In this document: piece by piece, positions 1,388-44,352 of the stretch
Layout of the letters: each line of letters begins with the position of its first letter
Position numbering within the stretch: position 1 is the stretch's first letter
IMG/VR virus record: IMGVR_UViG_3300020396_000292
Coordinates: 1-55,056 of that record
Reading direction: 5' to 3' (one strand)
Length of the DNA stretch: 55,056 bases
From: a virus
Taxonomy: Duplodnaviria > Caudoviricetes
Program-made: the position numbers and the translations under genes
Notes under the pieces: generated by a model
What the model was told of the DNA's origin: nothing
What the model saw: only the letters and a program-made list of their open reading frames with translations
The model's database searches: none

Positions 1388-2989
1388 ATGCAAAATGGAT
1401 TTTCACCTAAGGAGCTTCGCTTCGGTAAGGATGGTAGGGATAAACTTATCTCAGGAATTACAAAATTATCAAACGCTGTTAAGAGCACTCTTGGTCCTCA
1501 AGGTAACACAGTGTTAATAGAATCAGAAGAACATGTTGGAGGCATTACTGTTACGAAAGATGGAGTAACTGTAGCTAGGTCTATTAACCTAATCGACCCT
1601 GTCGAGAACCTGGCGGTTCGTATGATGAAGGAGGCTGCTGATAAGACAGCTACTTCTGCTGGTGACGGAACTACAACTGCGATAGTATTAACTGAGGCTT
1701 TAGTTAAGATGGGTACGGAGCTTATAGGCGATGATGTAAACAGGACAGAGGTGCTTCGGCATATCAATGAAATTACGAAAGAGGTTGTACTTGGTCTGAA
1801 AGATGAATCTAAAAAATTATCAAAGAAGAAGATGAGGGACGTTGCTATTATATCAGCGAACAATGACAAGGACCTTGGTACTACAATAGCTAATGTATAT
1901 AAGCAGGTTGGTAAAGATGGTGTGGTTACTGTAGAGAAATCACAAACAAGTAAAACATATTATGAAACGACAGACGGAATAAAGATTGACAGAGGGTATT
2001 CGTCTCCGTTGTTTATTAACGACCAGAAAAAAGATGAGTGTGTGCTAGAGGATGTTTTTATTATGGTGTCTGATGCTGAGATAAGCAACATACTTCAGAT
2101 AGAAAATATACTAAAGCCAATCATCCAGAAGAACCAGAAGCTTCTTATCATAGCGCCAACATCTGTGAATGTAATAAACACATTGGCCGCTAATGTAATG
2201 AAGAACAATTTAAAGATATGTAATATCGCTCCACCAAACTTTGGATACAAGCAGCACGAGCTGATGCAGGACATTGCGTATACAGTAGGGGCAACATATT
2301 TTTCAGAGAAGACTGGGGATGACCTTAGCATTATAACCGCTGAGGATTTGGGTCATGCTGCCAAGGTGATAGTTGGTCGTGGCTCAACAGTTATCCTAAA
2401 GGATGATTCAGAAAAGAATAAAGACATAGACAAAAGAGTTAAAGAGCTTAGGGATGCATGTGATATAGCAAAAACAAAAAACGAAAAAGACTTTATCATG
2501 TCACGCATAGCTTCGCTAACTGGAGGTATAGGTGTCATATATGTAGGAGGAAACACAGACCTTGAACAGAAGGAGCTGTATGATAGAGTGGATGATGCGG
2601 TATGTGCGGTACGTTCAGCTCTAGAAGAGGGAATACTTCCTGGAGGTGGGATGACTCTTTGGACATTGGGATACGAAATATGTGAACCATGTTCACCGAC
2701 AGCCGATGAAAAGATTGCTGCCAATATAATGAAGTATGCTTTGCAAGCACCAGCTAGACAAATCATTGCTAACTCAGGAAAAGATTTTAAATCTATATAT
2801 CCTAAGCTACCATCCTCAGGAGAAGGTTATGATTTAAAGAATTCTAAATACGGAAACCTCATCGACATGGGAGTTATAGACCCGTTGAAAGTAACAAGGA
2901 CTGCACTTGAAAACGCAGTGTCGGTTGCGACTACTATACTTTCAACTAATGCTATTGTAACAATGGCACGTTCATACGAAACAAATTAA
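1388..2989 (+). CDS. groEL: Chaperonin GroEL (phage-encoded)
   Basis: TLGPQG, VTKDGVTVA, AGDGTTTA, ALEEGILPGGG and GVIDPLKV motifs; no C-terminal GGM tail. Confidence 0.97.
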   Translation: MQNGFSPKELRFGKDGRDKLISGITKLSNAVKSTLGPQGNTVLIESEEHVGGITVTKDGVTVARSINLIDPVENLAVRMMKEAADKTATSAGDGTTTAIVLTEALVKMGTELIGDDVNRTEVLRHINEITKEVVLGLKDESKKLSKKKMRDVAIISANNDKDLGTTIANVYKQVGKDGVVTVEKSQTSKTYYETTDGIKIDRGYSSPLFINDQKKDECVLEDVFIMVSDAEISNILQIENILKPIIQKNQKLLIIAPTSVNVINTLAANVMKNNLKICNIAPPNFGYKQHELMQDIAYTVGATYFSEKTGDDLSIITAEDLGHAAKVIVGRGSTVILKDDSEKNKDIDKRVKELRDACDIAKTKNEKDFIMSRIASLTGGIGVIYVGGNTDLEQKELYDRVDDAVCAVRSALEEGILPGGGMTLWTLGYEICEPCSPTADEKIAANIMKYALQAPARQIIANSGKDFKSIYPKLPSSGEGYDLKNSKYGNLIDMGVIDPLKVTRTALENAVSVATTILSTNAIVTMARSYETN

Positions 2990-5592: not shown

Positions 5593-5751
5593 ATGGCAAA
5601 GAAGGGAAGAACAAAAGGAAATAAAATTTGTGCAGCTGGAATTTCATGGGCAAAGAGAACCTTTGACACATACCCTTCAGCCTATGCGAATATGGCTGCG
5701 AGTAAGTACTGTAAAGACCCTAACTACGCTAAGAAATCTAAAAAGAAATAA
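5593..5751 (+). CDS. Small basic protein (52 aa, ...ICAAGISWAKRTFDTYPSAYANMAASKYCK...)
   Basis: Hand-translated; YPSAYAN motif recalled from small phage proteins (DUF5872-like). Confidence 0.75.
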   Translation: MAKKGRTKGNKICAAGISWAKRTFDTYPSAYANMAASKYCKDPNYAKKSKKK

Positions 5752-5752
5752 T

Positions 5753-5872
5753 ATGGCAAAGAAATTCAAAACACACATGATGTGCAAGAAAGACAAGTGT
5801 ATAAAGGTCACTTCTATGGCAGAACATTTTAAATTAAAAAAAGACGGATATACTCATACTAAAAAGAAATAA
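5753..5872 (+). CDS. Small basic protein (39 aa, MAKKFKTHMMCKKDKC...GYTH)
   Basis: Re-called start of ORF-track 5576..5872, 1 nt after the previous stop. Confidence 0.7.
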   Translation: MAKKFKTHMMCKKDKCIKVTSMAEHFKLKKDGYTHTKKK

Positions 5873-5874
5873 TT

Positions 5875-6036
5875 ATGCCAACAGTAAAATATAGTTGTCC
5901 AGATACTGGAAAGTCAATGAAAAAAAGTTTTCCTTACAATGCAGTAGGAAAAGCTCAAGCGCACACATTTGCAAAAACTATGGGTGGTTCTATGAAGAAT
6001 AATCCCAATACAAAAATGACAGAAGAAGGTTACTAA
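5875..6036 (+). CDS. Small basic protein (53 aa, MPTVKYSCPDTGK...FPYNAVGKAQA)
   Basis: Hand-translated; fills the gap exactly, TAATG overlap with next gene. Confidence 0.75.
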   Translation: MPTVKYSCPDTGKSMKKSFPYNAVGKAQAHTFAKTMGGSMKNNPNTKMTEEGY

Positions 6037-6281
6037 TGGGAGAGCTTAAGAAATGGAGAGATGAGAAGTGGGTGCGCATAGGACTTGATGGCTCTATCAA
6101 AGGAGCTTGTGGTACAAGTAAAGACACTAAGAATCCTGACCGTTGTTTACCAATAGCAAAAGCAAAAAGTATGACTAAAGCACAAAGAGCTAAGACAGCT
6201 CGTAAGAAGAAAGCCTCAAAAAAAACTGTTGTAGCTAATACACCTAGAGCAAGAGTAACTAAAAAATATACAAAAAGATGA
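6036..6281 (+). CDS. Small basic protein, DUF5872-like
   Basis: LKKWRDEKWV...CG...RCLP..KA...RKK pattern. Confidence 0.75.
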   Translation: MGELKKWRDEKWVRIGLDGSIKGACGTSKDTKNPDRCLPIAKAKSMTKAQRAKTARKKKASKKTVVANTPRARVTKKYTKR

Positions 6282-6649
6282 GTTGTAAAGGATTGACAGG
6301 AAGGGCATTAGCTAAATGTAAATTAAAAGCTGGAAAAATTAAAAGAGATTCTATTAGAACAAATAGAAGGTTTTCAAATTCTACAAACCCAGGTGTCTAT
6401 GCTAAGCCCGATAATACACCAGCTGGTATTGCAAGAGGAAGAAAGTTTGAAAAAGAAAACGACTATGAGGGTTGGAAATCAATGAAACGACTTGAGAAAA
6501 AACAAAACAGAATAAATAATATCGGAAGACCTACTCAAAGAACCTCAGCTCAAAAGAAAGAGTTGACTAAACTTTACAACTATACTGACATATATAATAA
6601 GAAGTATAAAGTAAGAGACTCTATACCTTTAAGTAAGACTCAGTTTTAA
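6278..6649 (+). CDS. Basic hypothetical protein (123 aa)
   Basis: MSC-x(10)-KC N-terminus, similar to 7352; ATGA overlap. Confidence 0.7.
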   Translation: MSCKGLTGRALAKCKLKAGKIKRDSIRTNRRFSNSTNPGVYAKPDNTPAGIARGRKFEKENDYEGWKSMKRLEKKQNRINNIGRPTQRTSAQKKELTKLYNYTDIYNKKYKVRDSIPLSKTQF

Positions 6650-6658
6650 TGAATAATT

Positions 6659-6913
6659 ATGGCAAAACCAAGAAGGGGAAAGGCAAAAGTAAAAATTACT
6701 TCAAGTGGTAAAAAAGTAAGCTACGGCCAAGCAGGTAAAGCCAAAGGTGGTGGTCCCAGAGTAAGACCTGGTACATCTAAGGGCGATAGCTATTGCGCAA
6801 GGAGCTTAGGAATAAAGAGGGGTTTGTCTAGAAAAAAAGCAAACGACCCCAACACTCCAAACAATTTATCTCGGAAGAGATGGAAGTGTGTTGGTGCAAA
6901 GTCTAAAAAATAA
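6659..6913 (+). CDS. Small basic protein, DUF6321-like
   Basis: KKVSYGQAG...SYCARS...DPNTPNNLSRKRWKC. Confidence 0.75.
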   Translation: MAKPRRGKAKVKITSSGKKVSYGQAGKAKGGGPRVRPGTSKGDSYCARSLGIKRGLSRKKANDPNTPNNLSRKRWKCVGAKSKK

Positions 6914-6916
6914 ATT

Positions 6917-7060
6917 ATGCTATTTAACAATTTTACAAAACAATTACCTCAAAACAATTTTAAAAAACGTGACGTATTTTTAGTAAATAAGCTTCAGAAA
7001 GGTTTAAGTAAAATTGGTAAGACAGCAAGTGTTTTATCTAAGATACGTGGAATAATTTAA
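6917..7060 (+). CDS. Small basic protein (47 aa)
   Basis: Hand-translated MLFNNFTKQLPQNNFKKRDV... Confidence 0.55.
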   Translation: MLFNNFTKQLPQNNFKKRDVFLVNKLQKGLSKIGKTASVLSKIRGII

Positions 7061-7088
7061 ATTGGAAAATACTAATAGAAAATATTAG

Positions 7089-7096
7089 TATCTTTG
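7089..7096 (+). promoter_or_regulatory. -7 promoter element TATCTTTG
   Basis: Intergenic, 32 nt before 7129. Confidence 0.65.
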
Positions 7097-7128
7097 TACA
7101 ATGAGTAACTTTAAAAAAAAATAAGAAA

Positions 7129-7347
7129 ATGAAACAAGGATATAATTCTAGACTAGATGAGTCTATGGCTGCAAAGAATGGAAAGAAATCTCAATCTATG
7201 AAATCTCGTAGAGACGAATCAAAGGCAATGTCTAAAAAAGATTATGGTCATTCTTACGGTGGAGACCATAGCATGAGCTATGAGCATCAGTGTATTGCTA
7301 AAGGAAAAGTAGGAGCTCACCTCTCATCTGTTATTAAGAAAAGATAA
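7129..7347 (+). CDS. Small basic protein (MKQGYNSRLDES...)
   Basis: 72 aa ORF with A-rich start context. Confidence 0.75.
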   Translation: MKQGYNSRLDESMAAKNGKKSQSMKSRRDESKAMSKKDYGHSYGGDHSMSYEHQCIAKGKVGAHLSSVIKKR

Positions 7348-7351
7348 ATAT

Positions 7352-7558
7352 ATGTCATGTAATTCTATTAAGGACCCGTACAAGAAATCAAAGTGTATGG
7401 AAGCCCAAAGGCTTCTAGATAAGCATGTAGCTACTGAAGCGTTAGGAGGTAAAGGAAATAACACAAAGAAGGTCACTATGCATTATGGTCACGGAAAGAC
7501 AAGAGACTCAATTACTTTTAACGACAAAACTGTTAACAGAGTACTGAAAAATAAATAA
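7352..7558 (+). CDS. Small basic protein (68 aa)
   Basis: Tightly packed ORF; MSC...KC start. Confidence 0.65.
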   Translation: MSCNSIKDPYKKSKCMEAQRLLDKHVATEALGGKGNNTKKVTMHYGHGKTRDSITFNDKTVNRVLKNK

Positions 7559-19349: not shown

Positions 19350-20438
19350 ATGGAAATCAAAGTAAGAGAATTAGGTTCTGTAGAAGAAAAATCAGTTGCT
19401 CAAGTAGAGGAAGCTTTAATTGAAAAAGTTGAACAACAACACGAAGAACAAGTACAGCCAGAGGTTGTAGAGCAAGAGTCAGTTTCAGAAGAAGCGGAAC
19501 CTGCTAGATTAGAAGAAAGAGATGTTCTTGAATTTATAAAGAACAGGTATGATAAAGACATATCGTCTGTAGACCAATTGTTTACAGAGAAAGAAGGTAA
19601 TAAAGAGCTACCAGAAGATGTGTCCGCTTATTTTGAATATAAAAAGAAAACTGGTCGTGGTATTGAAGATTATGTTAAATTAAACAGAGACTTTGATTCC
19701 TTAGATGAAGACCAAATTTTAACTGAGTATCTTTTAGCTACCGAAGAAGGTATTGATAAAGAAGACGCTGAGCTTTTAATGGAGGATTATTCCTATGACG
19801 AGGATATAGATGATGAGTCTGATGTTAAAAGAGCTAAGTTAAAAAAGAAAAAGGCTATTGTAAAAGCTAAGAAGTTTTTCAATGAACAAAAAGAAATGTA
19901 TCACCAGCCGCTTGAGTCAAGTGCAACTGGTATTTCTGAGGACAATGAAGACTACAAGGCATACAAGCAATATGTTGAGAATGCAAAGACTCAGTCAGAA
20001 GAACAGTCTAGGAAAGTAGATTTCTTTGAAAAAGAAACTAACAAGGTGTTAAATCAAGACTTTAAAGGTTTTAAGGTTAATATTGATGAAGCTAATTTGT
20101 TATACAATCCAGGAGGTTCTGTGGAGGAAATTAAAAAATCTCAATCAAGCGTTATTAATTTTATTAATAATCATTTGAATGAAGATGGATTAGTTAAAAA
20201 CGCAGCTGAGTACCATAAAGCATTATCAGCAGCAATGAACCCTGATAAATTCGCAAGGTTTTTTTACGAGCAAGGTAAGGCTGCAGCTACGGATAACGTA
20301 ACCAGAAAGATGAAGAACATCGATATGACTACGCGTTCTGCTCCAGAGGTAACCGTAAAAGGTGGAACTAAATATCGTGCAGTAAATGCAAGTGAAGGCA
20401 GAGGGTTAAAGATTAAGAGTATTAAAAGAAAAAATTAA
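19350..20438 (+). CDS. Putative capsid scaffolding protein
   Basis: Very acidic, helical, between portal and capsid genes. Confidence 0.7.
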   Translation: MEIKVRELGSVEEKSVAQVEEALIEKVEQQHEEQVQPEVVEQESVSEEAEPARLEERDVLEFIKNRYDKDISSVDQLFTEKEGNKELPEDVSAYFEYKKKTGRGIEDYVKLNRDFDSLDEDQILTEYLLATEEGIDKEDAELLMEDYSYDEDIDDESDVKRAKLKKKKAIVKAKKFFNEQKEMYHQPLESSATGISEDNEDYKAYKQYVENAKTQSEEQSRKVDFFEKETNKVLNQDFKGFKVNIDEANLLYNPGGSVEEIKKSQSSVINFINNHLNEDGLVKNAAEYHKALSAAMNPDKFARFFYEQGKAAATDNVTRKMKNIDMTTRSAPEVTVKGGTKYRAVNASEGRGLKIKSIKRKN

Positions 20439-32009: not shown

Positions 32010-33989
32010 ATGAGCTACTACGGATATATAGAAAGAGAAAACAATCAAGCCCTTGACTGGCAGACCATTGGTAAGAACCTTAGTGATAATCTTTTAAAAG
32101 CTGGTAAGGACAGACAGGATAGAAGAGACGAGTTTGAACAGGCCTCATTAGATTATCAGAAGGAGCTTGATGAAGTTCCATCTGGTGACTATAAAACCGC
32201 TAATACATTTGCACTCAATCACGCAACAGACGCATCAAGAGCTAGACTTATTCAGGATAGACTTTTTAAAAATGGTTTGATGACCGACAGACAGTATACT
32301 GCAGCGCGTCAGCAGCTAAGAGATGATACCAAAAGCCTGTTTGGTTTAAGTAAAGAATACCAGAAGGAGTACGATGAGAAAATGGTTAGGTTTAAAAATA
32401 ACGAAAGCATGGTACTTGAGTCTATGCTTATGGAAAATATAGAAGGACTTGCCAATCTTAGAGACGCAGGTACATTTATAAATATGGAAAGCGGTGCGGT
32501 AAGTATAGGTACGTACGATACTCTGAAAGATAGTGAGGGTAAATATTATAAAGGAATGACTGTCGATAGGCTTTCAGCTACTGAAGGCGATAAGATGACT
32601 GTTAATCAAATGAGAAACAGGTATAAGGAGAGGTATGATAAGTTTGATTTAGATGCAGCAAACTCAGTGATTGCTGAGCGTACTGGCAAGTTCGTAACGG
32701 CTATAAGAACAGCTGGTGGAGAAAACTATTCTGGAAACATAAGAACTATTCTTGACCCAACTCAGAGAGGAAAGGACGAAGACGGTCTTTTAACTGATGC
32801 TATATCTAATTTTGAGAAGTACGAAAAGGACGCGATTAATGGTTATCTAGGTAACGAATACAATAAGTTGTCGGTGCTTACAAATAGCATAGTGTTTGAT
32901 GAGAATAAAAACACATACTACCCAACTCTTGACTCAACTCTTAAAGGTGTGGTGAAGGATGGTAAAAACTACGTTCTAGTAAAGGATGATGGAAGCGGAA
33001 CAATAACAGTTGACTTTACTCCTGGCCAAACCAAAGCTGCGTTTAAAGGTGCACAAACAAACTTTAGAAATCAGCTAGACTACACAGAATCAGAAACTGT
33101 CTACACTGAAACAAGGGAGAGACTAGATAAAGAGAAACTAAATAAGACAGAAAAGTCTGAAGAACAAGTTATAAGCTCATGGAACACATTGTACCATGGG
33201 ACTAAAGAACAAAAGAAAACTGCTATAACTAACCTATTAAACTCTAAGATTGCTAAAGGAGTTAAGAGTGATGGTTCGGACAGTATACTAGCTATTGATA
33301 TAACTAAAGCTGGTGAAATCGAGGTGAGTTATAAAGACCCAACTCTTAACGAAGTAATTTCTTATGACCCAGAAAATATAACGCAAGAAGATTGGGCAAG
33401 GTTAGGTAACTTTGTGCATGGTGTAGATGATATAGATACTGTTATGACTCGTGCTGGAGGATTTAAAACAGGTGATGCAGGTACTAGAAGACTAGGTGCT
33501 GATGATATTGATAACGTGTTTGCTAACAGGCAGGGTGGGTCAGTGAAAGAAAGCCAGGGTAAAGCATTTAAAAGAATACTAAATAAAAAGTTTGATGATA
33601 CTCAAGAGGCTGCTATAAAGAACATGGTTAAAAAGGATGGTGATGCAGCCAACGATAACTTTGTAGGTAAGTATACTGACAGTATGCCAGCTGGATTTAA
33701 ACTTCAAGCACTCAGAAAAATAGGTGCTGATAGTGGGAAGTTCGTTAGGATTGCATACACAGACCCTAATGGTAAGAAAGTATTCTCTGAAGATATTAAT
33801 ATAGACGGTGGTGATTCTATGAAAAAGATAAGAGACTACATTACAAAGCAAAGCGGAACAGAGAAGGCTATGATTCAGCAGGCACTATACATTAAGAATA
33901 ACGGAGGAAGAATTTCAGGTGCGAAGCCGTATGAAACTAGAAAAGAAAGAAACGGAGTCGGTGGAGCGTACCCAGTTGATGATAACTAA
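32010..33989 (+). CDS. Internal virion / ejection protein 2
   Basis: 659 aa helical protein between ejection protein 1 and the giant gene. Confidence 0.65.
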   Translation: MSYYGYIERENNQALDWQTIGKNLSDNLLKAGKDRQDRRDEFEQASLDYQKELDEVPSGDYKTANTFALNHATDASRARLIQDRLFKNGLMTDRQYTAARQQLRDDTKSLFGLSKEYQKEYDEKMVRFKNNESMVLESMLMENIEGLANLRDAGTFINMESGAVSIGTYDTLKDSEGKYYKGMTVDRLSATEGDKMTVNQMRNRYKERYDKFDLDAANSVIAERTGKFVTAIRTAGGENYSGNIRTILDPTQRGKDEDGLLTDAISNFEKYEKDAINGYLGNEYNKLSVLTNSIVFDENKNTYYPTLDSTLKGVVKDGKNYVLVKDDGSGTITVDFTPGQTKAAFKGAQTNFRNQLDYTESETVYTETRERLDKEKLNKTEKSEEQVISSWNTLYHGTKEQKKTAITNLLNSKIAKGVKSDGSDSILAIDITKAGEIEVSYKDPTLNEVISYDPENITQEDWARLGNFVHGVDDIDTVMTRAGGFKTGDAGTRRLGADDIDNVFANRQGGSVKESQGKAFKRILNKKFDDTQEAAIKNMVKKDGDAANDNFVGKYTDSMPAGFKLQALRKIGADSGKFVRIAYTDPNGKKVFSEDINIDGGDSMKKIRDYITKQSGTEKAMIQQALYIKNNGGRISGAKPYETRKERNGVGGAYPVDDN

Positions 33990-34002: not shown

Positions 34003-37000
34003 ATGTTGAATATAGATAAAGAGCAGTTAGAGCAGTCACACAGAATGTTTGTGGCCGAGGGTTACAAAGGAAGCCTGGAACAGTTTTCAGAACTAATGAA
34101 GAATAATCCTGCAGCATTAAACGACATGTTCGGTCTTTATGTACAGGCAGGCTATCGTGATTCAAAGGATTCTTATGCAGAGTTGATTGGAGCAAAGCCT
34201 CCAAAGACAGTAAAAAAAAAAGTTGTTACGGAATCCAATGTGGAAGATGGTTCTTTGGATTCGTCAGAAACTGATGGTTCACCAATACAAAACCCAACTG
34301 AAGCTGAGTTAGAAAATCTTCTTAAAGCTCCCCAAACACAAGCGCAGGAGCCTACAGGAATGTATCCTGATATTGATGAGGTGAACGCTTATCGGGAACA
34401 AGAAACTTCTACTGCAGGAGATACCTTTGACGTGCTAAAAGCACAAAATGAGATTTACCAGCAGCAGAGACCTGAGGACATGGCTATTTTCCTGGCCGAA
34501 GAACAAGAAAGAAAAAACCTTGAAGAACAGCAGAGGCAAGACAGCTTATCACTTCAACTAGAAGGCGATGCCTTTCTTCAGGACCTTTCAGTTATTAATA
34601 CTGAACTTATAAAGCAGGATGAAGAGACTGCAATTGCTTTACTAAGAAGCAAATTTCTAAAATACGGATTTACATTTGAGAAGACTGGCATGGGCGATGC
34701 TGTTATTGTTTCAAACTTTGATGGAACAGCTACCGAGACCATAGACCTACAACCATTTTTTTCATCGTCTGAAGTACTAGAGTCTAAGAAACTAAAAGAC
34801 TTTATAACCAACAACGCTAAGCAAGAGTATCAAGACAATGAGTTTGATGACCTTGCTTTTCAATCAGACAAGGCACAGAACCTACGTATAGCTCCAAGAA
34901 TAAATGAAGACGGAACTGAGTCTACAGTTCTTATGACAGACTACGAGGCCAACGGTAGATTTTATGCTATACCTACGCTGTTTCCTAAGAACCCTAGTTT
35001 TTATGGAAGTAAACCTAAAGACTGGCTTGAACTTGATTTTGAAGAAGCTAAAAAGTTAGCTGAAGAAAGAGGTGAGGTCTTTGAGTTTGAAACCGCAGAA
35101 CAAGCAGCTAAATTTGCTGAAGGTTCTTGGAAAGATACTCACGCAACAAACGTAATAGGTAAACAATTATATTCTGAAGCTGGTTTAAACTTTGCAGCAG
35201 AGGATGATAAGTACCAGCAGTACATTAAAGCTAGAGATACTAGAATATTTTTAAATGAACAGGTAGATGATTTAGGTAGAGATTTAATTAGCGAACTGAC
35301 ACCAGAGGAAAAAGAATTGTACGGTGGTTATTATGTAAACGGAGTACTCAGAGACGATGCTGCTCAGATTGCAAAAGAACAACGAGAAATAGAAAACAAT
35401 CTATACCTTGAGGTTAATAGCGAAGAAAAGATTAAGCTCAGAGAAGATTTTGATATTAAGACACACGAAAAATACGAAGCCTTATCTCAGAAAGCAGCTA
35501 AAGATAACAGACAATTACTGTTTGCTCAGGATGAGCTAGAGGTTTTATCTTTAAAAGAGTTTGGTGTTCCTGTCAAAGACCTAAACAATGTCGTACCTGC
35601 AAATGAAACACAAGCAAAGCTAATAGACGACCTTAGAATACAGACAAAATCTATAAATGTAGAGAGACAGCACGCTGCTGATTTATACGAAACAGCTAAG
35701 ACTTTTTACAGTGCTAAGTATGACAAATCAATAACCCAGGATATGGAGGATGGGGCGGCTGCCGTCTACAAAGAACTACGCGCTGGACTAAACGATGGAA
35801 ACGCATCTGAAGTTATACTTCAGCTAAGTACGGGGATGCCTTTTGATTTTCAGAACTTAGATATTAACAACGAAGAAGATGTTAAGAAAGCGGCTGAAAT
35901 GATATCTGCATTAAAAGGAAAAAATCAAGGCAGAAAGCAATCTAGACAGTTGTCAAGGTGGAACAGGGCTACAGGATTTAGAGAAAGTCTTGATGCCTTT
36001 AACGCCAACCCCCTTGAAACAGCTTTTGTTATGGCCATAAACTCTATAGGTATGATGCTTCCTTACGGAGCAGAACTTGTGGCGGCTGGTACGGTAACAG
36101 GTGCTGGTATTGGGGCAGGAGTAGGAGCTGCAGGTGGTGGTGTTGGAGCTGTTCCTGGAGCTATTTTTGGTATGAGACAGGGAATGAAGACAGGTATGGC
36201 AATGACATCTTTTGCTATGGAGTATACCAACGAGTTCTTTGCAGCTATGGAGGACAAAGGATTAGATGTTCTAAACCCACAGGATGTAGTTACTGCTGTA
36301 AACGACCCAGAGATTTGGGCAACAGCAAAAGAAAGAGGTATAGCACGAGGTGTTCCAATTGCTCTTGTAGATTTTATAACCGCAGGTGCTGCTGGTCGTG
36401 TATTTAAGGTTGGTAAAACAGCCTCAACAACAAGAAAGATTGTAACTCAGACGGCAGAGCGTCTTGTATTTGACCCTCTTGCAGAAATGACTGGAGAAGG
36501 ACTTGCTCAAATTAGTGTTGGTGATGAATTAGATTTTAAAGAAATAGCTGCAGAAGGTATTGGTGGTTTTGGAAACAACACATCAAGCATGATAGTCAAC
36601 AAGGTGATGGATATAAAAAAAATGAGTAAGATAGAGCTTGCCTCTAAGCTTACCGAGATGGATTTTATAGTTCAGGAATTGTCACAGGAAAGCGACACAA
36701 GGGTATCTGCGTGGACAAATAATATGCTTGAGCTTGGACAAATTAATGCAGACCAGGCGCAACGAATACAAAAAAACTTAGGACTTTCTAAGGACGCAGA
36801 CAACATGCTTGAGTTTGGCATAGATAAGAACAGCGAAAAAAATACACTTGTAAAGACCAGGCTTATGCAGCTGCTGTCCGCTAAAGAAGAGTACTCTGCA
36901 GACACTAACCGTAAAGAAGTATTCGGTCAGAAGATTAAAGATATTAATGCAGAGATTGCGTTTTTAATAGAGAATAAAAAACTAGCTCCCGAAAACATTA

Positions 37001-40000
37001 AAGCAAAAATAGAAGCTATATTTTCTCCAGGTGTTGAGACCACTGACACAAGGGCCGCGCTATCTCAGTATGTGATAGACGGAAAAACCTATAGCAGAAG
37101 TGAGTTTTTAAAGAAGCTTGGTAGAATGAATGCTCGTCAGCTTACTGAGTTTAATGGTAAGGTTGCCAATGATAAAGAAGTTACTAATATATTAAATGAA
37201 AAATTAGATGCCGTTCAAATCAAAGAAACAGAGAGCGTGGATGCACGCGAACAAACCGAAGATAGCACAGGAGTGGGAGAAGGAGTATCCATCGAAGAAA
37301 CCCCAGGGGTTGAGACCACCGAAACGAAACAGTTAGTATTCAAAACCCCTGACGAAGCTGCCATATCTCCAGAGCAAAGAGAAATTTTTGGAGACACACA
37401 CACAGACAAAAGACTTCCTGGTAAGGCAGCTATAAAAGAAATCACAGATGCTGATGACCAAGGAGTTGCTACAGCCACATACGTAAATCAGGACACAGGA
37501 ATTGTTGATGCTATAATTAGTAGCACAGACGAAAATAATTTTGTTGGATACGTTAGGGTATATGAAGATGGCAAGGCAACAAATATGTTCTCCGCTAAGA
37601 TGGAGTCTACTGGAACAGCGTTCAAGAATATGATTACATCTGCTGAGGCTACACTACCAGATAATTCAGAGGTTGTGGAAACCAGTTCAATATCTGTAGG
37701 AGGATTAAAGTCCTTCAACAAATCTAACATGGATACTAAAGTTGATTCAGATGGTAATGTTGTCACTAGAAAAACAGCATATAGTAATGCAACAAAAGAA
37801 TCTGTAGCTGAAAAAGGTCAAGAGGCTTACAATAATTATTCAACCACAGAACTTGTTGAGGCTGAGGCTGAACTTGCTAAGATTGAGGCTGCCTACCCAG
37901 GTATAACCGCAACGATAAAGAAAAAGAAATCACCTCCTTCTCCACCGCCTAGGCCTGGAGAAAAGAAAGTGCCAAGAAAACCTAATACTTATAGTATTGA
38001 TATTGATTTACCTGTTATGGTTAAATCAAAGGCAAGCACAAAGACAACAACAGATACAAAGACAAAGGCAGAAACCATAGTTGCTGTGGCTCCGTTCTTT
38101 GATACCACAATTAAAACAGTTGAGGACGCTGTTGCCTTAAGAAAAACTAAAGAGTACCAGGCTTACAAAGAAAACTTAACCGCTATTGGAGAGCAGCTTG
38201 GTGTTGAGGTTGAGATTGAAGAAGGTATAGGTGGATACAAGAACGATGCTGGAAAAGAGATAGTTGAGATATCAACAAGGGTAGTGCTTAAGGATGCTTC
38301 AATAGAGCAGGCTCAAGAGTACGCTGCAATCTCAGCTGCGTTAGCTCCTGAAACTCAGGAGAGTAGCATAGCCGCAGAGTACGTAGAGGAGGGCTCTAAG
38401 GAGCACAACGGGAACGAGTATGTTCTTACCGTATCAGATAGTCAGGGTGTTATAAATGCATTAGAAAAAGCAGGCATAACAGACTTCAGTATCAATGAAG
38501 ATACAGGGGAGGTAAGTTTCATAAATATATTTGAATTTGATAACCCAGAACTACAAGATAAAATTGGTATCTTTGTAGAAGAATTAGAAGCTAACAACAT
38601 TACTTATGATAAACAAAGCTACCGACCAGTCAACTCCATCTATGTCGACCAGGGAAAAAGGAAAGAAATTCTTAGAAAGTCTGCGAGCAAACGGTCCCAA
38701 GACAGACAAACTGGGGGAGACCTTTATAGCACGCTCCTCAAAGCAATAGAGAACGACTCTAAGTTTGAGGGTGTTACTACCGAAGAATACTATTCAGGGT
38801 TTGAAGAACTCAAAGCAAGCGAGACAGCTGCAGCTCAAGAGGTTGCAGACCTAGAGGCAGACTTAGAATCAGAGTTTGAGAACGATGCCAATGTTGACTT
38901 CAAGTTAAAGGAGGAGCAGAGTAAAGAAGGATTCGCAGACGTGAATGAAATTGTTGAGGCAATGTCCGAAGATACGGATGGTGCGGTTGTCGAGATAACC
39001 GAGACAAACCCTAATGCTCCTAAGATTGATGTACAAGAACTAAACGAAAGATTAAAGAAGGACGGAGGAAGACCACTGCCTATTGTTTCAATAGATGTCA
39101 TTGATGGTATACCTACCATGTTCAGTATATCAGACCAGCTTAGAACTGGTAACGTAGTTAACCCATCCACAGGAAAGGTTATAAAAAATTTAAAGGGTGG
39201 TCTAGGATTTAACGGTGTGAAGGGTCATGAGAATCTTGCATGGGCAAGCATCGATACGAACACAGTCAAAGGCCAAATTTCTACAGCCACTAAGATATAC
39301 AATAACAACAAAGAACTTTTTAAGAATTGGTGGGCAGCTAATCCTGAGTATAACGGATTAGTTCCTATGTCAATTGTTAAGATGGAGACAGACTCTATAC
39401 TTAGCAATGAAGCTGTTGTTCGTGTAATGGCTGACAACATATCCTCGTTCCCTAAGGCTCAGAGAGTAGAAGCTTTGAATGTTTTTAGAGAGAGATTAGA
39501 AACAAAAAAAACCAAGCTACAGCAAGCTATAAAAGATGGAGTGGGTTTATCTGGCAAGGCGGTAAAACCTAGTACACTTAAGCAGTACGCTGAGCAAATA
39601 AAATCTATTGAGGATGTACAGAAAATGGATAAAAAAGTTAAGGCGAAAACTATAGATGGTTTACTAACGCCCAAAGCTTTAAAAAATCTAAAAGCTATAA
39701 CATCGGTCAATATAATCACAGGTAATCTAGGATATGGTAAGCCCAACAGCCCTACTGGTAAAGCAGTAAAACCTGGTACCCCATCGAATCCTGTTGCTAA
39801 AGCATTGCTTGGTGAAAAACCTTCAGCAGAAAGTAAAGCTAAACTACACCTTGGTTCTATCACTGATGTTCTTACAGAGCCTCAGCTTAAAAATACTCCT
39901 GTGCGCTCAGTATTTACAATCACAGGTATTGATGTTCTGAATCCTGGTATTGAAAAAACTAACCACCCAAACTATCCTGTTGGTCCTAGAGGAAAAATAA

Positions 40001-43000
40001 TAGGTGTTATAGAGCAGCCTCAATCTGTTCTTGAATTGTTTCCTTCTGCATATAATAATGCCGTACTTGGTAAAGCTAAAGAAGATGCAGGACAAAACAG
40101 AAAAAGGTCAGATAAGAAAAGATTATCTGAGGTTGTGCCTGTTCAAATGGGTATGACTAACAGAGAGTTCCAAGGAACTATTGTTGGTGTGACTGAAGAG
40201 GCTAGGCTTTTAGATTTTATGAACCGAAGCTTTCCTTTTGTTAATATATCTACCGACCAGGCCACTATGAACCAGTTGTTAGAGAGCCCTGACGTAACAG
40301 CTTATCTAAGAGGAGATTCAGTTGTGTATGGTATGACTAAGGATGGCAACATCTTTATTAATAAAGAAGTTCACGACTCAAAGTCTGAGCTGTACAACAC
40401 AGCTATTCATGAGATGGGTCATGTGTGGGTAAAGCATCTATCATTAACACCTAAGGGTAAGAAAATATATCAGCGTGGTGCAGAGATTGTACAGCAGACT
40501 GAGCTGTATAAGAAATTACTCAAGCGTTTTGATGGTGATGTAAACAAGGCTACTGAAGAAGCAATGGCAACACTCATCGGTAACAGAGGTGAGAGCGTAG
40601 TGGATGCGAGTTTGCAGCAGAAGGTTAAGGATTGGATTACTGCGGTGTGGGATTATGTAAGACAGGAATTTAAACTGTCTAAGGACCTAACAACAGAGGA
40701 GATTCAAGACCTAACAATGGATGAATTCCTAGGTACTGCAATGGCAGATATCTTTAGCGGTAAACCTATTAAGCTAACTGATGCTCAGTTAAAAACTTTC
40801 TCGACAGAACTTAAGGAAGCTATGCTTAAGTCTGACCAGAGTATGGCTTCTATAATAGAAACTGGTAGAAGAAACGGATTCTCAGATGCATCTATTAAAG
40901 CGGTACTTAAAGAAAGAAAGTTTCCAGCAGCAGATATAGCTGCTGCTATGGAAGTTAAGGTAGATGTGTTTACACAATTACCCGAAGCGTTTGGTAGGGT
41001 TGAAGGTGGTGTCAGTGAGGGGATGAAATTATATAGTGAGGTTAGACAAGCGGTATCTGACTTTGCATCCAAAGGTAAGACAATGGCAGAGGTTAGACAG
41101 AAAGCCATGGACCTGATGAAAGCTAATCCTATATACCAGGCTCAGCAAGAGCAGGTTCAGATGGAGCTTATGGTAGACTTTGACAAGACTTTAAATAGTC
41201 GCGCTAATGTTTCGGTGCAGAAAGAAATATCAGCTATTAGGAATAGCCTAAACCAGCGTAAGATAAATGAGAAGAATCTTAGGGCTTCACAGACTCAGCT
41301 TAAAAACTTTATAAGAAAGCAATTACCAAAGTCTAAAACATATACTCAGGCTCAAATAAATAAACTTATATCTAGGGTTGGTAAATCTACAGTTGATACA
41401 TTTCAGGCAGACACTGAGTATGTTATGAAAATTGTAGATAAGCAGAAGGCTAATATGCAGAAGGCTTTAGTTAAGGATATACTCAAGCTTGTTAAGTCAA
41501 AAGCCATGACAGCATTTACCAAGTCACGTAAGCGTAGAGCTAAAGGACTAAGTAAAGAGGGGCAGAGTTATTTCAACGCTGTCAAGCAGGTGCTAACCGC
41601 TGATGCTGATACGCTGCTTGATATACAACAGAAGCTTCAGAAAGAATCTGTAGAAATAAGTAACCTTATACAGAAACAATTAGACTTAAAGGCTATATCC
41701 CTAGCGAAGCAGAAAACTCAAGCTGGTAAAGAGTTATTAAAAAAACTAACTCTTACACAAAAAGAGCAGGCTCTATTAAACTTAGCGTTAGCATTTGATA
41801 CCTTTGGAGACGTTTCTAATTTGAGTCTTGAAGAAACTCAAGCCTTAATGCAGCAACTAAAAGATACTAAGGCTGAGTCTATCGCTGTGTTTAAGTCCAG
41901 AAGACTAGCAAGAGCTGAGGCTAACAAGAAAATGAAGGAGGAGGCTGATGCTCAGATTAAGGATACAAATCCTTTGCTCTTTGATGAGGATGGCAATGTT
42001 ATTAATGATGAACAGCGTTTAGCTAGGAGAGATAAAATACTTTCTCACTTCAGAAACTTTGAACTAGGAAAAGGATTCTCTACATTAGCTCAAAGCATGA
42101 GGTTTTCTAATGCTAGTAGCTATATTAAAAACTTTAAGTTGATGCTTCAGCATCTTGGTACCCTAAGCAATACTCTTGATAGGGTAACCAAAGGAAGGGA
42201 CTTCTTTACTAAGAATGTTTATGACGCTCTCAATAGAATGGATGACATAAGTATTGGTGGAGTTTACCAAACAAGACAGAAGCTTGATGACATTGCAAAT
42301 ACAATCCCTGGTATTACCAAAGGGATGAAACAAATATACCGAAAACTAAACACTGGCACTCATGAGCTTGTGTTAAAGAGAGGTGATACAGGAACAGAGT
42401 ACACTGATATATTTAATTCAGACCAGCTGATGCGTATATACGCACTTAGTTTGAACGATGTTCAAAGACAGAAGCTTGAGGCTCAAGGCATAACCCCTGA
42501 AACTATAGAGAGTATTAAAAATATTATAGGTCCAGAGGCGGTAGAATTTGCGGAGAAATCTGTTGACTTTCTAAGTAATGAATACTATGAGAGCGTTAAC
42601 AATGTTTACTCCTACGTCAATGATGTAAACCTAGGGTATGTAAACAACTACTTCCCAACGGCTACCATGTCAGCGGATACTTCAGCTGACATGATAAAGG
42701 GTGGAGACTTTAGCGGTGTGTTTAATTCTGAGACCTCTCCTGCTTTTAAAGAAAGAAGCAATAAGACTTCCGATATTAAATTAAAGGAATATGACTTTAC
42801 ATCTGTTCTTAATAATCATATTGAGAGCATGGAGAAGTATAAGGCTTATGCTGTAGGAACGCAGAGGCTAAACAACTTATTTAAGATTGAATCTGTACGT
42901 CAATTACTTAAAGAGACAGGTGTTGATGGTGCTATGAGGAAGGCTGTAAACTTTGCTATTAATCCAGACTCTGGAAAGGATGCTTCAGGAAATTTAAAAC

Positions 43001-44352
43001 TAATAAGCAAACTACAATCTAAGTTCACAGGATTTGCCTTGGCATTTAAGACTATACAAATACTTAAGCAGGCTACTTCTTTTGTAAACGCCTTTGAAGA
43101 CTACAGTTATTTTCCTCCGAACTCTAAGGTTCCTCGTGTAATTAGGAAGGCTGTTGACTATCCAATGTTTATGATTGATGGCGCGGCTAACGTACTATCT
43201 TTAGCTAAAGATTTAGTTGGAATGAAAGGACCTGTGCGACAGGCTATGGAGATATCTCCTACATTCAGGAAGAGGATAGAGCAGGGTATAGAGGGTGATG
43301 TGTACGGGCTAGAGTCTGGAGGGAAAACATTTAAGAAGAAATCATTGACAGGAGGTAAGCGTAAAAGAGCACAGCAAGGATTTAAAACAGCGGCTGCTGC
43401 TCCTACTGTGATTGGAGATGTGCTTGGTGTTATGGGTTACATGATTAACTATAAGCGTAACATAAAAAATGGTATGAGTAAGGCTGATGCTTTAAAAGCA
43501 TTTAACAATTACAATCCTACTCAGCAATCAAGAAGAGGAACAGATAAGATTCCTTTACAGATGAACAGCACTGTTTTTCAAAGAGCTTTTACCATGTTCG
43601 GTAGTACATTGTACCTTCAGATTAACAAGGTTATGCAGAGCACAACTAACATATCAAGAAGTATATCTCAAGGAAAAATGCCGCGCTCAAAAGACACGAG
43701 AGGTTTAGCATTAAACATGGCTGTAGCCAACGTACTGTTTGTTGGCGTATCTAACATAGCTAAGTTTGTGAAGGGAGATGACGAGGATAAAGATGCGGCA
43801 CTTATGAAAATGGCAGAGGCTATGATGGGACTTAATCTTATATACCAAATCCCATTTGTTGGCGGTACTATAGAAGGATTTGATGTTGCTGGTAGAATAA
43901 TATCTGGTGTACAAGGAGAGGAGTACAAAGAAGAAGGCCTTAGGTTTAGCGGTGACGTTGTTGACCCTCTAGCCAGTGTGGTATCTAAGTACAGAAAGCT
44001 TACTAAGAAAGATATAGGAGAAGTAGAGGCCGCACTTAGGGTACTAACAGAGATAACTATAGGGGCACAGCTCGACCCTTTCATTGGGTTATACAATATG
44101 TTTGGCGGTGAAGAGGAAGACCTTGATGATGCTACGTATGATGTTATGGGTATCTCTCCGTCTTACAGACCGAAGAATGAAGGAGGAGGAACATACACAC
44201 CAATGAGTAAGACCAAATTGAAGTCAATGTTTCCTGACATTTATAAGGATAAGTATGGTCCTGGAGGAACAAATGAAGATGCGGAAGAAATAAAGTCAGA
44301 TATTAGAAAGATGAAAAGAGATTTGAAGAAAGAAATATATGACGACTTTTAA
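34003..44352 (+). CDS. Giant internal virion / ejection protein (3449 aa) with glycine-zipper TM segment and HExxH zincin-like motif
   Basis: AAGTVTGAGIGAGVGAAGGGVGAVPGAIFG; AIHEMGHVW (HEMGH at 40408-40422) with downstream EEAMA; last gene of the structural arm. Confidence 0.85.
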   Translation: MLNIDKEQLEQSHRMFVAEGYKGSLEQFSELMKNNPAALNDMFGLYVQAGYRDSKDSYAELIGAKPPKTVKKKVVTESNVEDGSLDSSETDGSPIQNPTEAELENLLKAPQTQAQEPTGMYPDIDEVNAYREQETSTAGDTFDVLKAQNEIYQQQRPEDMAIFLAEEQERKNLEEQQRQDSLSLQLEGDAFLQDLSVINTELIKQDEETAIALLRSKFLKYGFTFEKTGMGDAVIVSNFDGTATETIDLQPFFSSSEVLESKKLKDFITNNAKQEYQDNEFDDLAFQSDKAQNLRIAPRINEDGTESTVLMTDYEANGRFYAIPTLFPKNPSFYGSKPKDWLELDFEEAKKLAEERGEVFEFETAEQAAKFAEGSWKDTHATNVIGKQLYSEAGLNFAAEDDKYQQYIKARDTRIFLNEQVDDLGRDLISELTPEEKELYGGYYVNGVLRDDAAQIAKEQREIENNLYLEVNSEEKIKLREDFDIKTHEKYEALSQKAAKDNRQLLFAQDELEVLSLKEFGVPVKDLNNVVPANETQAKLIDDLRIQTKSINVERQHAADLYETAKTFYSAKYDKSITQDMEDGAAAVYKELRAGLNDGNASEVILQLSTGMPFDFQNLDINNEEDVKKAAEMISALKGKNQGRKQSRQLSRWNRATGFRESLDAFNANPLETAFVMAINSIGMMLPYGAELVAAGTVTGAGIGAGVGAAGGGVGAVPGAIFGMRQGMKTGMAMTSFAMEYTNEFFAAMEDKGLDVLNPQDVVTAVNDPEIWATAKERGIARGVPIALVDFITAGAAGRVFKVGKTASTTRKIVTQTAERLVFDPLAEMTGEGLAQISVGDELDFKEIAAEGIGGFGNNTSSMIVNKVMDIKKMSKIELASKLTEMDFIVQELSQESDTRVSAWTNNMLELGQINADQAQRIQKNLGLSKDADNMLEFGIDKNSEKNTLVKTRLMQLLSAKEEYSADTNRKEVFGQKIKDINAEIAFLIENKKLAPENIKAKIEAIFSPGVETTDTRAALSQYVIDGKTYSRSEFLKKLGRMNARQLTEFNGKVANDKEVTNILNEKLDAVQIKETESVDAREQTEDSTGVGEGVSIEETPGVETTETKQLVFKTPDEAAISPEQREIFGDTHTDKRLPGKAAIKEITDADDQGVATATYVNQDTGIVDAIISSTDENNFVGYVRVYEDGKATNMFSAKMESTGTAFKNMITSAEATLPDNSEVVETSSISVGGLKSFNKSNMDTKVDSDGNVVTRKTAYSNATKESVAEKGQEAYNNYSTTELVEAEAELAKIEAAYPGITATIKKKKSPPSPPPRPGEKKVPRKPNTYSIDIDLPVMVKSKASTKTTTDTKTKAETIVAVAPFFDTTIKTVEDAVALRKTKEYQAYKENLTAIGEQLGVEVEIEEGIGGYKNDAGKEIVEISTRVVLKDASIEQAQEYAAISAALAPETQESSIAAEYVEEGSKEHNGNEYVLTVSDSQGVINALEKAGITDFSINEDTGEVSFINIFEFDNPELQDKIGIFVEELEANNITYDKQSYRPVNSIYVDQGKRKEILRKSASKRSQDRQTGGDLYSTLLKAIENDSKFEGVTTEEYYSGFEELKASETAAAQEVADLEADLESEFENDANVDFKLKEEQSKEGFADVNEIVEAMSEDTDGAVVEITETNPNAPKIDVQELNERLKKDGGRPLPIVSIDVIDGIPTMFSISDQLRTGNVVNPSTGKVIKNLKGGLGFNGVKGHENLAWASIDTNTVKGQISTATKIYNNNKELFKNWWAANPEYNGLVPMSIVKMETDSILSNEAVVRVMADNISSFPKAQRVEALNVFRERLETKKTKLQQAIKDGVGLSGKAVKPSTLKQYAEQIKSIEDVQKMDKKVKAKTIDGLLTPKALKNLKAITSVNIITGNLGYGKPNSPTGKAVKPGTPSNPVAKALLGEKPSAESKAKLHLGSITDVLTEPQLKNTPVRSVFTITGIDVLNPGIEKTNHPNYPVGPRGKIIGVIEQPQSVLELFPSAYNNAVLGKAKEDAGQNRKRSDKKRLSEVVPVQMGMTNREFQGTIVGVTEEARLLDFMNRSFPFVNISTDQATMNQLLESPDVTAYLRGDSVVYGMTKDGNIFINKEVHDSKSELYNTAIHEMGHVWVKHLSLTPKGKKIYQRGAEIVQQTELYKKLLKRFDGDVNKATEEAMATLIGNRGESVVDASLQQKVKDWITAVWDYVRQEFKLSKDLTTEEIQDLTMDEFLGTAMADIFSGKPIKLTDAQLKTFSTELKEAMLKSDQSMASIIETGRRNGFSDASIKAVLKERKFPAADIAAAMEVKVDVFTQLPEAFGRVEGGVSEGMKLYSEVRQAVSDFASKGKTMAEVRQKAMDLMKANPIYQAQQEQVQMELMVDFDKTLNSRANVSVQKEISAIRNSLNQRKINEKNLRASQTQLKNFIRKQLPKSKTYTQAQINKLISRVGKSTVDTFQADTEYVMKIVDKQKANMQKALVKDILKLVKSKAMTAFTKSRKRRAKGLSKEGQSYFNAVKQVLTADADTLLDIQQKLQKESVEISNLIQKQLDLKAISLAKQKTQAGKELLKKLTLTQKEQALLNLALAFDTFGDVSNLSLEETQALMQQLKDTKAESIAVFKSRRLARAEANKKMKEEADAQIKDTNPLLFDEDGNVINDEQRLARRDKILSHFRNFELGKGFSTLAQSMRFSNASSYIKNFKLMLQHLGTLSNTLDRVTKGRDFFTKNVYDALNRMDDISIGGVYQTRQKLDDIANTIPGITKGMKQIYRKLNTGTHELVLKRGDTGTEYTDIFNSDQLMRIYALSLNDVQRQKLEAQGITPETIESIKNIIGPEAVEFAEKSVDFLSNEYYESVNNVYSYVNDVNLGYVNNYFPTATMSADTSADMIKGGDFSGVFNSETSPAFKERSNKTSDIKLKEYDFTSVLNNHIESMEKYKAYAVGTQRLNNLFKIESVRQLLKETGVDGAMRKAVNFAINPDSGKDASGNLKLISKLQSKFTGFALAFKTIQILKQATSFVNAFEDYSYFPPNSKVPRVIRKAVDYPMFMIDGAANVLSLAKDLVGMKGPVRQAMEISPTFRKRIEQGIEGDVYGLESGGKTFKKKSLTGGKRKRAQQGFKTAAAAPTVIGDVLGVMGYMINYKRNIKNGMSKADALKAFNNYNPTQQSRRGTDKIPLQMNSTVFQRAFTMFGSTLYLQINKVMQSTTNISRSISQGKMPRSKDTRGLALNMAVANVLFVGVSNIAKFVKGDDEDKDAALMKMAEAMMGLNLIYQIPFVGGTIEGFDVAGRIISGVQGEEYKEEGLRFSGDVVDPLASVVSKYRKLTKKDIGEVEAALRVLTEITIGAQLDPFIGLYNMFGGEEEDLDDATYDVMGISPSYRPKNEGGGTYTPMSKTKLKSMFPDIYKDKYGPGGTNEDAEEIKSDIRKMKRDLKKEIYDDF
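37208..37336 (+). CDS. Nested +1-frame micro-gene MPFKSKKQRAWMHANKPKIAQEWEKEYPSKKPQGLRPPKRNS (42 aa)
   Basis: Hand-translated; resembles the MPFKS.AQR.WM.AN.P..A..W small basic phage proteins; AT-rich upstream. Confidence 0.65.
   Translation: MPFKSKKQRAWMHANKPKIAQEWEKEYPSKKPQGLRPPKRNS
38606..38749 (+). CDS. Nested +1-frame micro-gene MINKATDQSTPSMSTREKGKKFLESLRANGPKTDKLGETFIARSSKQ (47 aa)
   Basis: Hand-translated; AAAATTggTATCTTTGTA promoter-like motif (octamer 38568-38575) 30 nt upstream. Confidence 0.45.
   Translation: MINKATDQSTPSMSTREKGKKFLESLRANGPKTDKLGETFIARSSKQ

Follow-up and report, generated by a model that had tools for sequence, protein, structure and literature searches.

Is a 42-codon open reading frame (ORF) that lies entirely within a giant phage gene a gene in its own right, or only an accident of the longer frame around it? 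The question is raised by positions 37208..37336 (+) of the IMG/VR virus record IMGVR_UViG_3300020396_000292 (Duplodnaviria; Caudoviricetes), the whole 55,056-nucleotide stretch of which is called the window below. A first-pass annotation of this DNA had described an ATG-to-TAG ORF, behind an A/T-rich stretch, in the +1 frame of a 3449-aa ORF, and had proposed that it is a conserved, overprinted gene for a small basic protein. We could reproduce the coordinates, the frame and the peptide: the start lies 3205 nt (37208-34003; 1 mod 3) downstream of the start of the host ORF 34003..44352, placing the small ORF in +1, and its product is MPFKSKKQRAWMHANKPKIAQEWEKEYPSKKPQGLRPPKRNS (42 aa). A TAG stands immediately 5' of the ATG in the small frame, and the acidic reading of the host frame over the nested ORF, DAVQIKETESVDAREQTEDSTGVGEG..., also agrees with the earlier description. 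From comparisons with related phages, we conclude that 37208..37336 is very probably a functional, selected and separately initiated coding gene. It has the marks of an embedded gene: a longer ORF on the same strand encloses it completely in a different frame, it has a start codon of its own, and it is under purifying selection.

A family of small basic phage proteins

When the 42-aa peptide was searched against named phages by tblastn, 12 records were matched, 10 of them from query residue 1. The matches at the start include two annotated small genes, gene 48 of Streptomyces phage FlowerPower (72 aa) and URG13095 of phage 023Pt_psg01 (39 aa); in Prochlorococcus phage P-RSP2 and phage C75C1 they fall on free-standing small ORFs that are unannotated. 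These free-standing homologues from unrelated phages share the start Met of the nested copy and, together with free-standing copies at many IMG/VR loci, bear out the first-pass claim that the protein also occurs as a gene standing alone. A search of 5.8 billion proteins returned seven close proteins of 33-58 aa with E values down to 5.8e-12, and a hidden Markov model (HMM) built from the homologues collected here recognized the window ORF at E=3.7e-20, the next match in the window having E=3.1. With a profile of 100 members, 4454 of 1.84 billion cluster representatives were matched at E<=1e-3 and 779 at E<=1e-10.

The corresponding PHROGs v4 family is phrog_1375, which was catalogued from called, mostly free-standing genes and is annotated 'unknown function'; its free-standing members have the same N-terminal motif and size as the nested protein. 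At E<=1e-3, 41 of the 100 aligned family members matched phrog_1375 (best, 6.6e-7). Across the 100 sequences M1, S5 and Q8 are invariant and P2, F3, K4, P17 and W23 are conserved in at least 90%, and the window peptide conforms to the family motif, MPFKS..Q...(aromatic)...N.P..A..W followed by a Lys/Arg-rich tail in a protein of ~33-73 aa in total. An AlphaFold2 model made with the 100-sequence alignment (mean predicted local distance difference test score, 85.8) has helices at residues 6-15 and 17-26 and an extended basic tail. The product may thus be pictured as a two-helix hairpin with a Lys/Arg-rich tail and a net charge of +9; the charges of the nested copies range from +7 to +18.

The module is not confined to small proteins. 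In all 150 profile matches listed it lies at or near the N-terminus, starting from residue 1-3 in 131 of them, and these matches are 46 to 575 aa long, so that the module also heads longer proteins. Examples of 100-575 aa are L021:6001-6747, P0013, P0014, P0083, P0142 and P0152. Behind the 40-aa module their C-terminal parts differ and include a weak AAA-like match, DUF5661 and Gly/Ala-rich sequences. The variety of longer proteins that carry the module suggests a portable N-terminal handle. At the level of sequence, these searches show an old, very widespread family of ~40-aa basic phage proteins, which stand alone or serve as an N-terminal module.

One subtype of the nested protein is marked by an insertion in its core and by a pair of conserved Cys residues (L105, L110, L121, L127, L130, MW202828.1 9593-9724 and MT497068.1 53458-53583) and includes the copy of a cultured Flavobacterium phage. 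Membership of DUF3008 (PF11450) was rejected, as 0/100 family members match it at E<=0.1; the only link to PF11450 is a language-model neighbor at 0.84, 15% of whose members carry PF11450, and is a lead only.

Conservation and selection in the two frames

To avoid ascertainment bias, giant genes were sampled without reference to the small ORF, by searching IMG/VR with an alignment of the 450 giant-protein residues that end just before the dual-coding stretch (the cassette). The search gave 60 loci with 32-96% identity to the 450-aa segment. The ORF is present in 50 of them, always with ATG, always in +1 and with a length of 41-55 aa; four loci end before the site, so that the proportion is 50/56 among the uncut ones. 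In the other six, which represent four lineages, the giant ORF runs on through an unrelated linker and there is no cassette, so that the giant protein does not need the linker sequence of the cassette. In a search with the whole giant protein, the +1 ORF was intact in 4/4 close relatives (L005-L008), two of which have in-frame insertions in the tail. The alignments show that the ATG, the open frame and the motif (MPFKS, Q8, P17, W23) have been kept though the flanking domain diverged to ~35% identity. As a control, the 44-aa +1 ORF 39227..39361 of the same giant gene is interrupted by stops in relatives. Judged by these alignments, the nested ORF persists over a divergence at which an unconstrained frame would decay. 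The alignment of homologous giant genes had been suggested in the first-pass annotation as a check, and its outcome (conserved ATG, Trp codons and open +1 frame) is favorable; the recurrence of DAVQ/DAIQ linkers in giant proteins of related phages was likewise confirmed.

To see which frame is constrained, we compared substitutions over the 27 codons after the start codon. Nucleotide diversity at positions 1/2/3 of the small ORF was 0.398/0.266/0.458 in the unbiased set (37 unique sequences), 0.401/0.273/0.470 in all giant-nested copies (47 unique) and 0.209/0.156/0.277 in copies nested in a second host gene, between portal and capsid (18 unique; described below). Position 2 of the small ORF is the wobble position of the host frame and is the least variable in the overlap, whereas a control block of the same giant genes has the normal pattern by host codon position (0.293/0.213/0.597). 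An OLGenie-style count was made on pairs that were <30% divergent, in which dNN/dNS compares changes altering the small protein with changes silent in it, both non-synonymous in the host frame. It gave 0.26 for giant-nested copies, 0.20 for the portal-capsid gap gene and 0.27 for the unbiased set, against 1.59, 1.48 and 1.75, respectively, for dNN/dSN, the converse measure on the host frame. When codons were bootstrapped over all pairs, dNN/dNS was 0.47 (0.34-0.61) and 0.32 (0.21-0.49); all of these figures are descriptive, because the pairs are phylogenetically non-independent and the bootstrap resampled codons only. Pairwise amino-acid identity in the unbiased set averages 0.56 for the small frame, compared with 0.40 for the host frame.

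The pattern agrees across the three samples and shows purifying selection on the small frame, with the host-frame residues free of it and the linker changing freely. Since selection acts on the small frame only, the acidic DAVQ... linker would be the shadow of the small gene and not the reverse. The frame-specific rates thus support the first-pass view of the linker as the out-of-frame shadow of a conserved nested gene, for which such a comparison had been proposed. The charge of the host-frame segment over nested copies ranges from 0 to -16. The host-equivalent frame is open in all nested copies; among 37 unique free-standing copies it is open in six and has stops in 31, and in view of these stops the openness of the host frame is itself maintained where the gene is nested. 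In the arrangement that we propose, a disordered acidic linker of a giant structural-module gene accommodates the small gene in its +1 frame, and the host would only need an open frame through the cassette, which a flexible acidic linker tolerates; the sequence of the linker would therefore be dictated by the small gene.

Two other explanations can be weighed against these data. A nucleotide or RNA element (packaging, regulatory or structural), or a requirement of the giant protein for this linker, could leave the +1 ORF as a by-product, and the host wobble position is indeed more conserved in the overlap than in ordinary coding sequence. However, variation is highest at position 3 of the small frame (0.458) and lowest at position 2 (0.266), which is the signature of coding; the same peptide is made by free-standing genes in which the host-equivalent frame is mostly stopped (31/37 unique copies); the cassette occurs in hosts unrelated by blastp; and giant genes without it carry unrelated linkers. 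We regard such an element or linker requirement as very improbable. The small ORF could alternatively be a relic, a formerly free-standing gene that was swallowed by a fused or extended coding sequence and survives, unexpressed, through the openness of the giant frame. At ~35% flank identity a relic would lose its ATG and gain stops, but 50 of the 56 uncut loci keep the ATG, the frame and the motif, and the comparable +1 ORF at 39227 does decay. The constraint falls on residues of the small frame and not on those of the host, and an open host frame alone does not predict the suppression of host wobble. These points make a relic very improbable in our estimation, even though the small gene is older than the linker, some giant genes have dropped the cassette but kept the giant ORF, and the expression data do not separate the small gene from its host.

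Initiation and expression

A Shine-Dalgarno (SD)-like motif precedes only 1 of 34 window genes, and their upstream regions are A-rich and G-poor (A frequency, mostly 0.4-0.7). Scored with a position weight matrix (PWM) from these 34 genes, the nested ATG has 2.3, compared with a leave-one-out median of 2.1, and ranks fourth among the 225 ATG triplets of the giant gene. The median percentile of the local score at the nested start is the 96th in 50 giant-nested loci and the 91st in 17 loci of the portal-capsid gap gene. In all but one of 72 unique nested copies (71/72), no other in-frame ATG stands between the upstream stop and the ATG of MPFKS. GGAG-like strings precede five nested copies in non-Bacteroidota-like contigs, where 0-3 of 5-9 neighboring genes carry such motifs; GAAGGAGG can encode Glu-Gly.

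The Bacteroidota-type promoter element TAnnTTTG is not enriched upstream of the nested ATG (4/71 unique loci; ~8% expected). In the absence of a promoter motif of its own, we infer co-expression with the host gene, the small protein probably being translated by internal initiation on the late mRNA of the host gene and not from its own transcript. Initiation in an A-rich context without an SD sequence would be typical of Bacteroidota hosts.

Programmed frameshifts are common in phage structural genes, and the nested ORF is on the same strand and in the +1 relation in every case, as would be expected if a +1 ribosomal frameshift just upstream made the peptide an alternative C-terminal end of a truncated giant protein. 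Such a frameshift would run into the small-frame TAG directly before the ATG in the window and, in 69 of 72 unique nested copies, into a stop 0-12 codons upstream of the ATG (directly adjacent in 20). Moreover, residue 1 is invariantly Met and free-standing members start at the same Met, and we consider a frameshift product highly improbable.

Several points weigh against a separately initiated gene, beyond the descriptive nature of the substitution figures. By length alone the ORF is not beyond chance, being third among the ATG ORFs in the +1 and +2 frames of the giant gene (47, 44 and 42 aa), and the window peptide matches phrog_1375 only weakly (E=0.0022, 19.3 bits). Three other ATG triplets of the giant gene outscore the nested one with a PWM that rests on 34 genes. 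RNA-library contigs of >=99% identity from four metatranscriptomic runs cover 37213-37558 and 37633-37783, with none on 36700-37191, and they indicate presence only, possibly as DNA carry-over, and neither transcription, a transcript start nor translation. Finally, no convincing family copy was found elsewhere in three records whose giant gene lacks the cassette (G001-G003, 36-56% complete), the only match in G001 being a weak one (E=0.006) to a different basic ORF; with six giant genes devoid of the cassette and these three records devoid of a copy, essentiality is not established. The length rank and the PHROGs score are also what a chance ORF would give, a fortuitous likeness to a low-complexity basic peptide in a purine-rich linker, and GAA/GAG-rich acidic linkers do read Lys-rich in +1. 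This reading is refuted by homologues with E values to 5.8e-12, by the HMM score of 3.7e-20, by residues invariant in 100 sequences and by a position and frame kept in 50 loci, so that we give chance practically no weight. As far as these comparisons go, homology and conservation raise the 42-aa ORF above chance.

Host genes, possible function and known systems

To learn where else the gene resides, IMG/VR was searched with the small-protein alignment, and the best 80 of at least 287 confirmed stretches were analyzed. At 40 of these 80 loci the family member is nested in a same-strand open frame of >=351 codons, always in +1, three seeming '+2' cases not being true nesting; there is also one 248-aa fused form, and the remaining loci are free-standing or lie close to contig ends. 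Comparison of the host ORFs by blastp gives a giant-gene group of 16 (window included), a group of 23 with ~350-430 codons and four singletons, and the cassette occurs in host genes mutually unrelated by blastp. In every host type, the frame reads DA[VI]Q... and then an acidic stretch, between unrelated flanks.

The 23 ORFs of the second group represent the gene between portal and capsid; their phages are syntenic with the window and have 58-70% identity to it in the terminase, 44-54% in the portal and 37-59% in the capsid-like protein. This gene shares phrog_16786 with the window gene 19350..20438. Among the closest 80 relatives of the latter, the cassette occurs in none of the 73 with enough upstream sequence, a sample biased to the clade of the window, and it is found in 24 more distant homologues (~35% identity). 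The best nucleotide identity between a copy in this gene and a giant-nested copy is 0.76 over 96 nt, again with unrelated flanks. The identity of at most 0.76, the unrelated flanks and the 0/73 close relatives rule against recent hopping between host genes, and relocations were old and probably few, not frequent. A peptide tree with the states giant, gene between portal and capsid, and free (101 rows, 34 columns, quick method, poor support) needed 16 state changes, against 40-46 in five of 200 shuffles, which is not an event count. Locus L069:969-2021 encodes the same small protein as L070, L071 and L074 and has a host-frame stop 12 codons before the nested ATG; its portal-capsid gap gene is thus interrupted or restarted there, which may reflect a nested-to-free intermediate or an assembly error.

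Exactly one copy was found in all ten gene-holding records searched: the window, 5/5 IMG/VR records (four of them >=90% complete), 2/2 named records and two records, G004 and G005, with a giant gene that lacks the cassette and the small gene elsewhere; in G005 the gene between portal and capsid harbors it in +1. Each searched record that has the gene is thus shown to have a single one, be it inside the giant gene, inside the portal-capsid gap gene or free-standing.

Two named GenBank records have the nested arrangement. In the spring-water phage MW202828.1, ORF 9593-9724 lies inside a giant gene annotated 'reticulocyte binding/rhoptry protein', and in the cultured Flavobacterium phage vB_FspP_elemoB_14-3B (MT497068.1), ORF 53458-53583 lies in +1 inside a 3694-aa 'structural protein' gene, 49797-60881. 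The nested ORF is unannotated in both, as anticipated in the first pass, which had supposed that gene callers miss it. The MT497068.1 giant protein has no blastp similarity to that of the window, and its gene is therefore a further type of host gene. The window terminase and those of Flavobacterium elemo phages share 46% identity, and a terminase search returned 87 records that by organism name belong to 68 Flavobacterium, 15 Cellulophaga, two Tenacibaculum and one Maribacter phages and one spring-water phage. These relatives make a Bacteroidota host likely, the nearest cultured ones infecting Flavobacteriia.

What the small protein does can be approached only indirectly. Because the gene travels with late structural genes, because its product is highly charged and because the module is used at the N-terminus of longer proteins, we tentatively consider, at less than even probability, that the product is associated with the virion or with nucleic acid. 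Its partner might be the virion or the packaged nucleic acid, with a role such as charge neutralization or a docking handle. A functional analogy is offered by the small basic core or internal proteins found alongside packaged viral DNA, which are likewise very small, strongly basic and encoded among late structural genes, but no homology or structural match to them was found. Three results detract from this functional proposal. The neighborhoods of free-standing copies are inconsistent: the FlowerPower copy adjoins a holin gene, that of 023Pt_psg01 is surrounded by head genes, and that of P-RSP2 belongs to the early region. A Pfam search with the window peptide and 100 family members found no family, only scattered, noise-like matches with E>=0.006, and a fold search of the AlphaFold2 model against PDB and BFVD matched only uncharacterized family members, with E>=0.085.

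A wider and somewhat more doubtful idea is that the gene and its linker form a self-contained dual-coding cassette, which lodges in disordered linkers of unrelated late virion genes as one copy with a changing address. The hosts observed comprise giant genes of at least two blastp-unrelated kinds, the portal-capsid gap gene and four further large ORFs, and it would always sit in the sole frame relationship that keeps the host open. If this is true, lodging in a linker would give late, promoter-free co-expression with virion proteins and shielding from deletion, a mode of gene organization distinct from classical overprinting, and a 40-aa module heading hundreds of longer proteins would be a portable handle, for example for docking to the capsid interior or to DNA.

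Two known systems invite comparison. Rz/Rz1 spanin pairs are found in phages of Gram-negative hosts, and both of their products work together. Rz1, too, is a small gene that has a start codon of its own and is read in +1 from wholly inside a larger gene on the same strand, and embedded and separate architectures occur in different phages, as in the MPFKS family. Unlike Rz1, the window peptide has no Cys or lipobox, no hydrophobic signal and no membrane segment, and there is no lysis-gene context in the window phage; moreover, the host genes of the MPFKS gene are of at least two unrelated kinds, and the host frame over it is an unconstrained linker. Lacking a lipobox Cys and a signal segment, the product is not an o-spanin. 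Classical overprinting, as in phiX174 and RNA viruses, also yields two proteins from one stretch of DNA, one partner being biased or disordered. There the embedded frame is young and restricted, whereas here the embedded gene is ancient and widespread (4454 representatives) and the linker of the host is novel. A de novo overprinted gene was rejected, as the embedded family is far wider than the host and host genes without the cassette exist. The word 'overprinted' in the first-pass annotation is therefore right about the nesting and wrong about the polarity: the small gene is the older, wider partner and the linker the derived reading.

Embedded genes of tailed phages have been treated as rare curiosities, and gene callers forbid them. 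An ancient small gene hidden inside large structural genes of many marine phage genomes would bear on the extent to which the coding of small proteins is overlooked in viromes, and reversed overprinting, in which the linker of the host is written by the gene it contains, on the origin of disordered linkers. The system offers an experimental handle: the nested start codon can be knocked out without a change to the host-frame residues, and a phage-host pair, vB_FspP_elemoB_14-3B and Flavobacterium sp. BAL314, is in culture. Among the articles listed by full-text literature searches, none concerned the MPFKS family or the nesting of a gene in giant or scaffold-position genes of phages of Flavobacteriia.

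Table 1. Positions of the nested gene, its surroundings and the alternative host gene in the window
Feature	Coordinates	Strand	Remarks
Nested gene, 42-aa basic protein, phrog_1375 family member	37208..37336	+	ATG to TAG, +1 frame of giant gene
A/T-rich, G-poor 22 nt, candidate SD-less initiation region	37186..37207	+	resembles upstream regions of the window's other genes
Host gene, 3449-aa ORF, last gene of plus-strand structural module	34003..44352	+	ORF; HEMGH motif, Gly/Ala-rich segment
Host-frame acidic linker DAVQ...KQL, giant codons 1069-1111, net charge -9	37207..37335	+	putative shadow of small gene
Portal-capsid gap gene, phrog_16786, 362 aa, no cassette in window	19350..20438	+	homologues are an alternative host

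The giant ORF had been labeled an ejection protein, for which we found no direct support. No PHROGs family was matched by the giant protein, and its sole Pfam match is a marginal one to DUF6861 (E=1.2e-6; 28.5 bits, cut-off 28), at the Gly/Ala-rich segment near residues 680-730. The HEMGH motif at residue 2136 is zincin-like. A megablast search of the giant gene against named phages gave no match. A segment of about 225 residues that follows the nested gene directly is shared by the window, L005 and L007 and replaced in L006 and L008; this swap places the cassette at a module boundary.

The giant gene contains a second basic +1 ORF, 38606..38749 (+; 47 aa), whose ATG and stop are intact in 15/15 loci (seven unique) with gap-free host alignment and 69-100% host identity. 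Its diversity by host codon position is 0.178/0.062/0.058, so that host wobble is suppressed here too. The product has no free-standing homologue (one match, 98% identical) and no PHROGs family. Thirty nucleotides upstream of this ORF, at 38568..38575, is TATCTTTG, a Bacteroidota -7-like octamer; four of its six occurrences in the window fall in intergenic gaps.

The first-pass annotation had also put the nested gene into one K/R-rich class with the small basic ORFs clustered at 5.6-7.9 kb. This holds for composition only: a search of the window with the family HMM gave no second copy, and no HMM relation to the MPFKS family was found for the ORFs of the cluster (5593..7558, +). Among these, 5593..5751 belongs to phrog_27331 (E=2.8e-22; function unknown there) and 6036..6281 to phrog_23735 (E=9.3e-30; annotated unknown function), and 6659..6913 has weak matches to three PHROGs. 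The window also encodes a GroEL-like chaperonin at 1388..2989 (phrog_5725, E=3e-135), and in the elemo phage MT497068.1 a cpn10 gene, 32367-32909, adjoins the terminase.

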